Of a stretch of DNA of 64,000 nt, positions 12,001 through 15,000 are shown one piece after another. Location of the stretch: positions 8,034 to 72,033 of the IMG/VR virus record IMGVR_UViG_2703718814_000005; one strand, 5' to 3'. The position numbers are program-made. This stretch comes from a virus. Its lineage: Duplodnaviria > Heunggongvirae > Uroviricota > Caudoviricetes. Each line of letters opens with the position of its first letter. The stretch's first letter is position 1.

Positions 12001-15000
12001 CAGGGAGACTTTCAGTCATTTCGTCAACAGAAACTACTTTTCTTCATTGGGCGAATATACAGATGGTCGGGTCAGTGGATATGAAGGCAAGGATAAAAAT
12101 CCACAGGGCATTAATATCAGGTATCGCTACGAGATAACGGATGATTTTGGCGTTATCACCTCTTTTACATGGACGCGTTCTCTCACTAACTCACAGACAT
12201 TTATTGATGTGCAGTCAGCCGATCATACCAGGAAGATTAAGAATCCGGCAGCTTCTGCCAGAACGGATATCAGGGCGAATTACTGGAGTCTGTTAGCGGG
12301 GCCTTCATGGCGGGTTAATCAGTACATGAGCTTATATGCGATGGCAGGGATGGGCGTTGCTAAAGTTAGCGCTGACCTGAAAATTAAGGACAATATTAAC
12401 AGTAGTGGCGGATTTTCTGAAAGCAACAGCACGAAAAAAAACTCCCTTGCGTGGGCTGCAGGTGCACAGTTTAACCTGAATGAGAGTGTTACACTGGATG
12501 TGGCTTACGAAGGTTCCGGCTCTGGCGACTGGCGCACGAGTGGAATTACTGCTGGCATTGGCCTGAAATTCTAACCTGTATCCGGTAACCGTTTACTACC
12601 CGCTGTGATGGCGGGTTTTTTATTGCCCGTACAGGGCAAAAACCGTAAATTATGCGTGGGTGCCTTTCGGCTGATGGCTGGAGGGTGAACCTGAAGGCCT
12701 GATGTGGAAAGGCCCCGAGTCAACTTAACGTTAACCCGAGGCCCTAACACTTTGTACCTTGACAAGTAGAAGGTTAGCGCCTCTCCACTCAGGAGGCAAG
12801 CGCTATGTCGCAAAAATCGCTTATCACCGTCACAATTTGTATGACGGTTATCTTCACTATCTGGATGTTGCACGGTTCGCTGTGTGAGTTCCGGCTGAAT
12901 TTGTGGGGAGCGGAGTTTGCGGCGTTCTTACAGTGTAAGCAGTAGGAAAACCGCGACGGGGACGAAAGTCCCCGTCAACTGGTTGCTGAGGTTCAGCCGA
13001 TATGGCACCCGTTTCAGGTGAGAGAATGAACGATAAAATTCTCCGGTATATGCAGCGTGTGGTGAGAAATTCCCGCAACCCTGAATTTATGAATGAAGTT
13101 AAAGACGCCTGCCTTAAAAAGCAGGCGTTTTGTTTTGAGGCACCTGATGGCTTTCTGGTGCTGCGTTCTGTGCTCAGTGCTGATGGTATCCCTTATGTTC
13201 TGGTGTTGCTGGGCGTGTGTACGGGGAGTAACAGCGTTGAGCGTTATCTGCCGGAGGTGAAGACATTAACCCGTCTGGCTGGCGGACGTTGGGCTGAATT
13301 TCATACGGCAAGGCGGGGATTTATCCGGCTGGGAAAACGTCTGGGCTTTGAGCGAATGCCGGATGATGAGGATGGCTTCATGGTGTTCAGGATAGCGGTC
13401 TGACTGCCACAGTTTTCATCATCGTGTTTAAACCAACATTGCAATTCACATTCTGACCCTGCTCCGGCAGGGTTTTTTTATTATCCAGGGGGCCATTATG
13501 GGTGGAAGTAAAGGTGGTGGTGATACCAAAGTAAAACCAACAGCAGCGCAAATAGCACAGGAAGAAGTGGCCTGGAAAGGGTGGCAGGATTACAAAAATA
13601 TCCTCCGCCCGGCTGAAGATAACTTCATGGAAAAGGTCGATGACCTGAACAGTGAGCAGCAGTACGACAATATCGCTGGCACCACAAATCTGGGGTATCA
13701 GAAACAGTTTGGCGAAGCACGGAAGGAGCTGGCGGGTAATCTTGCTCAGTCCGGTGTTGACCCGTCCAGTGGTCGCTTTAACGCGGTAATGAATGCGAAC
13801 CAGAGTGATCAGGTAACCGGGCAGATTGACACAACCACACGGGGGCAGGTATCGCAGGCAGATAAGTATGTTGCCGGGCTACAGGATGTTGCAGCTCTCG
13901 GTTCAGGTCAGAAGGCGGATGCGTTACAGAGTTTTAACTCGCTGGCAGACAGCAGTCTGGCAAAAGCTAAATCGGACGCACAGGCTGCGTTTACGAAACA
14001 GCAGGGGCGAGCCTCTCTTGTTGGCGCTGGTTTGGGTGCGGTAGGTGCATATGCGATGCATAAGGCTGGTGGTAGCGGAGGAAGTGGCGGTGCTAAAACA
14101 CCGGGCACCGGCGCTAATGCCATTCAGCATCAGGCTCAGAACTGGAGACTGTGATTATGGAGTACGGTAAATACGAAACACTTGCGAGATACGGTTATAC
14201 CGGAGCTGCCCGTCCACAGGGTGACTGGCAGACGTCAGCAGCGCTGACACGCCAACAATACGACGACTGGCGAACCAGATATTTGCCCCGCGTGGCAAGG
14301 CTGGCTGACCTTGGCGAGAACAACAGCCTGATGAATGCACAGCTTGCCCGGGTGGGCGGCCTTGCCACTTCCAGTCTCCGTACAGCGCAGATGGCGCAGG
14401 ATAACCAGATGGCGAGATACGGGGTAAGCCGCCCGGATAATCCCGACAGTAATACGCTGGGGTTACGTAATGCCCTGGCAATTGCTGGCGCGAAAAATGG
14501 TATCCGTGAAGCCGAACAGGATCGCCAGATGAACATACTGACGGGGGCTTCTGCACCGGCAAGACAGAAACTGAGTGTTGGCGGACAACTGGTGGCAGCG
14601 TAAGGAGGAAATATGGGGTACGGCTTACTGGATATTGCGAATCAGTCACGGCGTGAGGCATTACAGGGAATAAGTGACGCAGACCGACGACGTGAAGAAA
14701 TTGAGGCTGCGAACAAACAGATGGCGGCGCAACAGAAAGCGCAGAACAAGCAGAATATCGGTACGGGCATTGGTACGGGGGCGGCTATTGGCGCATCCGT
14801 TGGTGGTCCTGTTGGTGCTGTTGCTGGAGCAGAAATTGGCGGCATTGCTGGTTCTTTGTTTTAAGGAGTGGTGAATGAGCGGATTTGCACAGGGGTTACT
14901 TGCCGGATTCAGCACGGTTGACCAGGCAATGACCCGTCGTAAGGAGCTTGGTCTGCGTGAAGCACAGCTTGCCCGGCAACAGAAAAATAACGAGCGCGAT

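Follow-up and report, generated by a model that had tools for sequence, protein, structure and literature searches.

What is encoded directly downstream of the outer-membrane protein gene lom in Shiga toxin (Stx)-converting phages? The locus considered here lies in a 64,000-nucleotide (nt) stretch of a Caudoviricetes virus (IMG/VR record IMGVR_UViG_2703718814_000005, positions 8,034 to 72,033), which as a whole is referred to below as the window. The region is 100% identical to chromosomes of Stx-producing Escherichia coli (STEC) and 96.7–99.8% identical to Stx-converting phages of the 933W, VT2-Sakai (Sp5) and O104:H4 type. A sequence-only reading of the DNA had proposed that an unannotated toxin gene of the hok/gef family sits beside lom, as part of a type I toxin–antitoxin module carried as a moron. 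Our analysis supports this proposal. Positions 12623–13011 very probably form a complete hok/sok-type type I toxin–antitoxin module, a self-contained moron downstream of lom in a 933W/Sp5-type Stx-converting phage. The case is built on the Pfam match of the toxin, the leader, the predicted fold-back of the mRNA, the promoter and the portability of the module, to which a predicted antisense RNA is added. The module, of ~390 nt, has hok/sok anatomy and carries nearly all of the hok/sok hallmarks except mok.

A Hok-family toxin gene beside lom

The sequence-only reading had placed the toxin in a 46-codon open reading frame (ORF) preceded by a GGAGG Shine-Dalgarno sequence, and its coordinates are exact: on the plus strand, the ATG is at 12805, the TAG ends at 12945, and AGGAGG is found at 12791–12796, 8 nt before the ATG. 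The encoded peptide, MSQKSLITVTICMTVIFTIWMLHGSLCEFRLNLWGAEFAAFLQCKQ, is a match to the Pfam family HOK_GEF (PF01848), reaching 33.2 bits over residues 8–44, where the cut-off is 22 (E = 4e-8), and the gene is called by the Prokaryotic Genome Annotation Pipeline (PGAP) as WP_000078907.1. The N-terminal half of the 46-residue peptide is hydrophobic, with a 17-residue Kyte-Doolittle mean of up to 1.9 and a peak over residues 5–23, and the C-terminal SLCEFR...EFAAF aligns with Hok of plasmid R1 and with HokA, in agreement with the transmembrane helix and the Hok-like C-terminal signature described beforehand. In an alignment of five peptide sequences C27 and E28 are invariant; they are the counterpart of the L30-C31-E32 motif that is conserved in the Hok catalogue of Escalera-Maurer et al. 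(2026 bioRxiv preprint, 10.1101/2025.08.07.668861). The small size, which in the family is about 50 residues, the N-terminal hydrophobic helix and the conserved Cys-Glu pair are all traits of the Hok/Gef family.

Within this family the best-scoring named relative is HokA of E. coli K-12, with which the peptide shares an M(P/S)QK start and the W-M, SLCE and AAFL-CK motifs. HokA is also the top NCBIfam match, at 38.4 bits, far under the equivalog cut-off of 89 set for NF007290; judged by its sequence, the peptide is HokA-like, yet it is not HokA. HokA has 50 residues compared with 46 here, and the K-12 hokA locus is disrupted by IS150. By BLASTP, the peptide is 45% identical to K-12 HokA and 30% identical to R1 Hok, and over a stretch of 33 residues it shares 39% identity with the other Hok encoded in the window.

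Comparative sets were assembled to examine conservation, comprising 18 distinct homologues for the alignment, 13 for 5′–3′ duplexes, 15 for versions of the antisense RNA and 17 for ribosome-site accessibility. A profile scan of species-representative genomes with a 5-sequence alignment had returned only 5 loci, and diversity was hence drawn from E. coli and Salmonella records. Every one of the 18 distinct homologues has an unbroken 46-codon frame. Coding-sequence differences inside the Stx-phage lineage are exclusively synonymous (3/0 and 6/0, synonymous to nonsynonymous), and between lineages the ratio of nonsynonymous to synonymous differences per site (pN/pS) is 0.38–0.53. With a Pfam score over the cut-off, an intact frame and coding constraint, the assignment to the hok/gef family holds, and the peptide proves to be widely conserved in related prophages.

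The toxicity of the peptide has been addressed in the literature. An identical 46-residue peptide is listed in Table S2 of the Escalera-Maurer catalogue as 72_1589, a member of the high-abundance cluster 72 that was cloned as plasmid LRP157, with the same predicted Shine-Dalgarno sequence, GGAGG. Forty-two of 45 tested Hok homologues were toxic; 72_1589 was in the tested set and is not among the three exceptions, and its relatives of the P2 type (72_1621) and the island type (82_1289), both of which recur among the homologues compared here, were also tested (10.1101/2025.08.07.668861). The lack of toxicity on overexpression that the sequence-only reading had named as counting against it is therefore not what the published assay reports. 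The lom-side hok is a member of an already catalogued Hok cluster, and in this sense a known kind of element.

Predicted promoters, RNA folds and module boundaries

A putative promoter for hok was read from the sequence at 12623–12651 on the plus strand, with a −35 element TTGCCC (12623–12628), a 17-nt spacer and a −10 element TAAATT (12646–12651). The module is placed after the intrinsic terminator of lom (12598–12616 plus a T-run), and this promoter-like site of its own follows directly; −35 TTGCC and −10 TA(A/G/C)ATT are retained in all contexts in which the module is found. The predicted full-length hok mRNA, of about 355 nt (12658–13011, plus strand), was delimited by the start of the Rfam leader, the fold and the span of homology. 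The Rfam sok/hok-leader model (RF01794) aligns end to end with 12658–12816 (E = 3.8e-7), and the minimum free energy (MFE) of the 355-nt RNA 12656–13010 is −148.9 kcal/mol, with a z-score of −5.4 relative to shuffled sequences.

Folding of the leader, which had been suggested as a check, predicts a long-range fold-back of the hok type. In the MFE structure GGGUGCC..CGGCUGA of the tac-like 5′ element GGGUGCCUUUCGGCUGA (12658–12674, plus strand; near-invariant in the homologues) pairs with the complementary UCAGCCG..GGCACCC of an fbi-like 3′ element (12993–13010, plus strand), a predicted closure of the tac/fbi type. The 5′–3′ duplex has an energy of −24 to −34 kcal/mol in the 13 distinct homologues tested, as compared with −15 to −19 ± 3 kcal/mol for shuffled tails, and in all 13 it surpasses the shuffled tails by 3–4.5 standard deviations. 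The 3′ tails vary by lineage, with complementarity to the 5′ end kept. RNAalifold returned no 5′–3′ pairing on the full alignment, because the 3′ tails are out of register there and a local alternative competes; the pairing was therefore assessed sequence by sequence through duplex energies.

That local alternative joins the 5′ end to a ucb-like box, UGGAAAGGCCCCG (12705–12717, plus strand), which is invariant in 18 sequences and also forms an arm of the plus-strand counterpart of the Sok hairpin. The duplex between them has an energy of −21 to −26 kcal/mol, and this tac/ucb-type pairing is the RNAalifold consensus of the full-length alignment; as the partners are all invariant, there is no covariation to test. 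Further downstream on the plus strand lie a GAGG box, GAGGCCCUAAC (12738–12748), which is invariant and occupies the position of the mok Shine-Dalgarno sequence of R1 and hokW, and a dcb-like box, GUUAGCGCCUC (12773–12783), which has two possible partners: the GAGG box and, via CCUCUCC, the Shine-Dalgarno sequence of hok. The second of these pairings is present in the full-length fold, where the Shine-Dalgarno sequence sits in a local hairpin with CCUCUCC and has an unpaired probability of about 0.1. When the 3′ tail is removed, the MFE structure shifts to the 5′–ucb pairing plus a stem between 12738–12748 and 12773–12783 in the two structures inspected, those of the window and of the homologue L004; this stem is also part of the RNAalifold consensus. 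Truncation raises the modelled accessibility of the ribosome site, and blocking of the antisense target lowers it, in 12 of the 17 homologues; this modelling of the switch is suggestive only.

The sequence-only reading had also noted hairpins upstream of the ORF (about 12680–12700) and just after its stop codon (about 12950–12980), and both are recovered in single-sequence and consensus folds. The upstream hairpin, GGCU..AGG-loop-CCU..GGCC, spans 12676–12699 on the plus strand, and one of its pairs occurs as GC, GU or AU. The 3′ stem-loop, GACGGGGAC-GAAA-GUCCCCGUC, with 9 bp, spans 12955–12976 on the plus strand; four of its pairs show compensatory changes on both sides in RNAalifold, including an exchange of AU and GC that divides the alignment into 9 and 9 sequences. 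By analogy, this stem-loop is likely to be the protective end of a 3′-processed mRNA, as the R1 equivalent stabilises the truncated hok mRNA. Read on the minus strand, the same region (12954–12977) has the appearance of an intrinsic terminator, a stem followed by CGGTTTTCC, which could halt antisense transcription entering from downstream.

A search for a Sok-like antisense promoter, likewise suggested beforehand, found a conserved promoter-like site with a hairpin beyond it on the minus strand. The predicted sok promoter (12771–12799) has a −35 element TTGCCT (12799–12794), which overlaps the hok Shine-Dalgarno sequence, a 17-nt spacer and a −10 element TAACCT (12776–12771), the last of these invariant in 18/18 copies. 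Hexamers and spacing (TTGCCT-17-TAACCT) equal those of a sokW-type site at 49586–49614 in the same window. For sokW of Sp5, Takada et al. 2021 describe a mutagenic primer, YO-421, that replaces exactly this −10 element, and report that the resulting "pro-less" construct is without antitoxin activity (PMC8621323).

The Sok-like RNA predicted to start from the lom-side promoter would be about 60 nt long (57–62 nt; 12705–12764, minus strand, with both ends estimated), complementary to the leader over its whole length, and would consist of a single-stranded 5′ tail of 13–18 nt, a long hairpin (12711–12744) and a final UUUCC. In 15/15 distinct versions the hairpin has an energy of −22 to −30 kcal/mol on the minus strand versus −12 to −16 kcal/mol on the plus strand, where C-A mismatches take the place of G-U pairs and weaken it. 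The upper part of the hairpin is lineage-specific yet still paired. At the level of sequence, then, the locus has a predicted cis antisense RNA with its own promoter and stable hairpin, as is typical of hok/sok. The 5′ tails of the lom-side and hokW-type antisense RNAs are unrelated, and non-cognate duplexes reach −46 and −55 kcal/mol compared with −123 and −142 kcal/mol for the cognate ones.

By analogy with R1 and hokW-sokW, the 5′–3′ fold-back would lock the full-length mRNA and keep both translation and the antisense RNA away from it. Slow trimming from the 3′ side to the stable hairpin at 12955–12976 would release the 5′ end, which could then join the ucb-like box, and the refolded leader would expose both the antisense target and the toxin ribosome site. 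A short-lived antisense RNA would pair with this leader for as long as it is made, and the duplex would be destroyed. If the supply of antisense RNA stopped, through prophage loss, induction or host shut-off, Hok would be made and the inner membrane depolarised.

The boundaries of the module can be seen from its distribution. In the alignment, homology between contexts starts at the −35 element of hok (12623–12628) and stops just past GGCACCC (13004–13010). Copies of the block that are 75–100% identical occur in 1,750 of the 5,426 complete E. coli genomes and in 198 phage records, mostly of Stx phages. Relatives at 75–84% identity occur in other settings, namely after ogr at the ends of P2-like prophages, on a plasmid fragment, in a urease-linked island and in Salmonella, and the P2-type, island and plasmid copies show homology over the whole 373-nt query (12638–13010). 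The same module thus occurs in unrelated contexts, and neighbours are not carried along, a pattern that fits a portable, self-contained moron.

The closest non-Stx relatives (L004–L006, L008, L017–L019 and L021) are always directly downstream of the ogr/Delta gene at a P2-like prophage end. The host genes beside these copies differ (serS, tRNA-Leu, ihfA and raiA). The position after ogr/Delta is a second conserved slot in which this hok cluster is carried as a moron. Three of the five loci from the species-representative scan are E. coli-type hok modules in assemblies labelled Xanthomonas pisi, Planococcaceae (a metagenome-assembled genome) and Vagococcus sp. (L011, L012 and L014). The Xanthomonas pisi copy is on an 857-nt contig that is 100% identical to the window, and all three are probably the result of contamination or mis-binning.

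The absence of a conserved mok frame and competing readings

Several observations weigh against a complete and working hok/sok module at this site. The leader scores 40.1 bits with the Rfam sok model, below the gathering threshold of 59. A scan for consensus promoters lists neither the hok promoter (8/12, with a threshold of 9/12) nor the sok promoter (7/12); this negative result is uninformative, as the experimentally supported promoter of the sokW type likewise falls under the thresholds. Unlike at the hokW-type locus, the terminator scan gave no intrinsic terminator after the fbi-like element. The modelled gain in ribosome-site accessibility is small, from about 0.1 to 0.13–0.43, and is seen in only 12 of 17 homologues. 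The published toxicity assay relied on a multicopy plasmid that carried the bare coding sequence behind an artificial ribosome site (10.1101/2025.08.07.668861), and a search of the literature found no expression data for the sense or antisense RNA of the lom-side locus. Finally, there is no conserved mok frame: 9 of the 18 distinct homologues, including Sakai Sp5, are without an ATG-, GTG- or TTG-initiated ORF that reaches the hok ribosome site.

Hok synthesis in R1 depends on translation of mok, which has to reach the ribosome site of hok. The GAGG box of the lom-side locus, although invariant, has no start codon after it, and the stretch from this box to the antisense −10 element bears 1–2-nt indels that break any frame. 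The sole mok-like candidate in the window's copy is a TTG-initiated ORF of 42 codons that overlaps hok (12759–12887, plus strand) and lacks a Shine-Dalgarno sequence; no more than 4 of the 18 homologues have a corresponding TTG, and in Sakai a 1-nt indel has removed it. This ORF is probably fortuitous. With the canonical starts ATG, GTG and TTG considered, an overlapping mok is thus absent as a conserved feature, while the hokW-type locus of the window, which served as a positive control, has such a frame.

As no mok frame is conserved, the antisense target is probably coupled to hok translation by RNA structure and probably not by translation. A structural relay, in which the GAGG box and the hok Shine-Dalgarno sequence would compete for the CCUC box, is weakly supported by modelling. 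We raise as a tentative proposal, and one that we hold to be rather doubtful, that the locus represents a mok-less branch of hok/sok in which the GAGG box works as a pure RNA switch, together with a possible partial masking of the hokW-sokW deletion phenotype. A free GAGG box would in that case capture the anti-Shine-Dalgarno box (12773–12783) and release the toxin ribosome site, and antisense RNA bound to the GAGG box would reverse this release. The subfamily, which also occupies the ogr end of P2-like prophages, provides a natural test of whether hok can be regulated without mok.

The lack of mok can also be taken to mean that the module is a silent relic, in which the native mRNA, deprived of mok-coupled translation, is never translated and the module is idle in the lysogen, like many chromosomal hok loci of K-12. 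The dependence of R1 on mok translation speaks for such a relic, as does the prediction, for 5 of the 17 homologues, that the hok Shine-Dalgarno sequence stays paired whatever the state of the RNA; the authors of the catalogue, moreover, caution that overexpression of a coding sequence is no proof of native activity and that most of the chromosomal copies in K-12 are presumed to be inactive (10.1101/2025.08.07.668861). We nevertheless regard this explanation as unlikely. The frame is intact in every copy, across three unrelated contexts and Salmonella, with synonymous changes only within lineages and pN/pS below 1, and the toxin gene is itself preceded by a strong Shine-Dalgarno sequence. Conservation extends to the leader, the two promoters and the complementarity of the 5′ and 3′ ends, with lineage-specific compensations, a pattern that would not be expected of a decaying element.

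The conservation of the leader has a further reading. Because conservation of the non-coding leader equals or exceeds that of the coding sequence, and prophage small RNAs are common in enterohaemorrhagic E. coli (EHEC) according to the literature, the block could be mainly a regulatory RNA, acting in trans or as a cis element for its neighbours, with the small ORF incidental. The ORF, however, matches a curated family, shows coding constraint and encodes a peptide reported to be toxic, and the module changes context in one piece, leaving its neighbours behind; we therefore give this account very little weight. Least probable of all, to the point of being practically dismissed, is that one of the two minus-strand ORFs across the site (12571–12873 and 12857–13078) is the real gene. 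AP004402.1 does annotate a minus-strand "ORF-15c" at the hok site, but the open stretches on this strand are unconserved and shift in frame and length among close relatives, with 92 residues in the window reduced to 27 in Sakai at 96.7% DNA identity, and PGAP calls neither ORF. ORF-15c is spurious, and the earlier suspicion that both minus-strand ORFs are artefacts was well founded. A hok/sok-type toxin–antitoxin module is accordingly the reading retained below.

Relation to known systems, annotation and neighbouring genes

A hok/sok locus, hokW-sokW, has already been described in Sp5 (Takada et al. 2021, PMC8621323), and identity of the lom-side locus with it was considered and rejected. The primers of that study match the window at 49587–49648, and primers and the 51-residue HokW together map to about 49587–49783, within a hokW-sokW-type locus at 49459–49783 on the plus strand. 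The lom-side locus lies about 37 kb away and is distinct from hokW-sokW, which gives this phage a second hok locus of divergent sequence. The two belong to the hok/sok family, occur in the same type of phage and share the antisense promoter hexamers and the antisense architecture. They differ in the toxin, which has 51 residues in hokW-sokW and is 39% identical over 33 residues; in the Rfam sok score, which at 115 bits is above the gathering threshold at the hokW-type locus as opposed to 40 bits at the lom side; and in the Mok-like frame and the terminator after fbi, both present at the hokW-type locus and neither at the lom side. Experimental work at the level of the locus exists for hokW-sokW alone.

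In the hokW-type locus of the window, a Mok-like frame of 70 residues opens at an upstream, in-frame ATG (49571) that has GAGG as its Shine-Dalgarno sequence, and a clear terminator follows the fbi element near 49850–49880. The toxin of this locus is identical to K-12 HokD (catalogue entry 35_697) and not to Sakai HokW.

The lom-side locus is reminiscent of hok/sok (parB) of plasmid R1, with which it shares the order of elements: promoter, tac, ucb, GAGG box, antisense promoter over the hok ribosome site, toxin, 3′ hairpin and fbi. The predicted lom-side switch would also share the tac/fbi versus tac/ucb logic of the R1 hok mRNA. It differs from R1 in having no mok frame and no terminator after fbi, in a peptide that is 30% identical and 6 residues shorter, and in being borne by a phage and not by a plasmid.

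Sakai Sp5 also has the lom-side locus; it lies between ECs_1236 (lom) and ECs_1237 and encodes the same peptide as in the window. Two hok copies are present in only 3.5% of hok-carrying phages (10.1101/2025.08.07.668861), and the phage of the window is among them; Stx2 phages of this type would carry two independent hok/sok modules. Takada et al. report that hokW-sokW aids lysis on induction and that its deletion delays lysis and lowers the phage yield 2-fold (PMC8621323). As this sole experimental study deleted hokW-sokW only, redundancy with the lom-side locus is not addressed there; the word "lom" has 0 occurrences in its full text, and its introduction, results and discussion do not take up a second hok locus (PMC8621323). 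Because Sp5 has the lom-side locus with the same peptide as in the window, this second locus may partly mask the hokW-sokW deletion phenotype. We found no experimental study of the RNAs or the biology of the lom-side locus in the literature. By analogy, the module may serve to stabilise the prophage, to assist lysis on induction, as hokW-sokW does, or to exclude other phages, R1 hok/sok being reported to exclude T4.

The description of the gene as unannotated in the sequence-only reading is correct for older records and incorrect for current ones. No feature for hok is present in the records of Sakai (NC_002695.2, 1292387–1292815; locus L009, 6388–6816), 933W and VT2-Sakai. RefSeq and PGAP, on the other hand, list WP_000078907.1 as "Hok/Gef family protein", the label found in every E. 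coli row among the matches listed, and GenBank KU238067 has "small toxic polypeptide, member of the Hok/gef superfamily" with a marked ribosome-binding site. Among the matches listed, other phage records label the ORF "prophage host toxic membrane protein" or "MokW-like host killing" or leave it unannotated. The catalogue of Escalera-Maurer et al. covers the coding sequence only, with mok, Sok and mRNA structure explicitly left undefined, and its main text makes no mention of lom, Stx or hokW (10.1101/2025.08.07.668861). The gene call itself adds little, as current pipelines and this recent catalogue already recognise the lom-side hok. Work based on the EHEC reference annotations (Sakai NC_002695.2, 933W and VT2-Sakai), from which the gene is missing, overlooks a toxin gene beside lom. 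The remaining interest of the locus lies in the missing mok and in the possible redundancy with hokW-sokW.

On its upstream side the module is flanked by tail-fibre genes and by lom itself (11840–12574), whose product is assigned to the Ail/Lom outer-membrane proteins on the basis of Pfam Ail_Lom; hypothetical genes run downstream. The start assigned by PGAP to the downstream ORF of 133 residues, ATG 13002, falls within the fbi-like element (13004–13010). Another record gives ATG 13026 as the start of this ORF, with an annotated ribosome-binding site, and overlap with the 3′ end of the hok mRNA is possible. Elsewhere in the window, Rfam matches at gathering score comprise two cspA thermoregulator elements on the plus strand (52928–53351 and 55829–56213) and, on the minus strand, DicF (44203–44254) and sRNA-Xcc1 (28677–28765).

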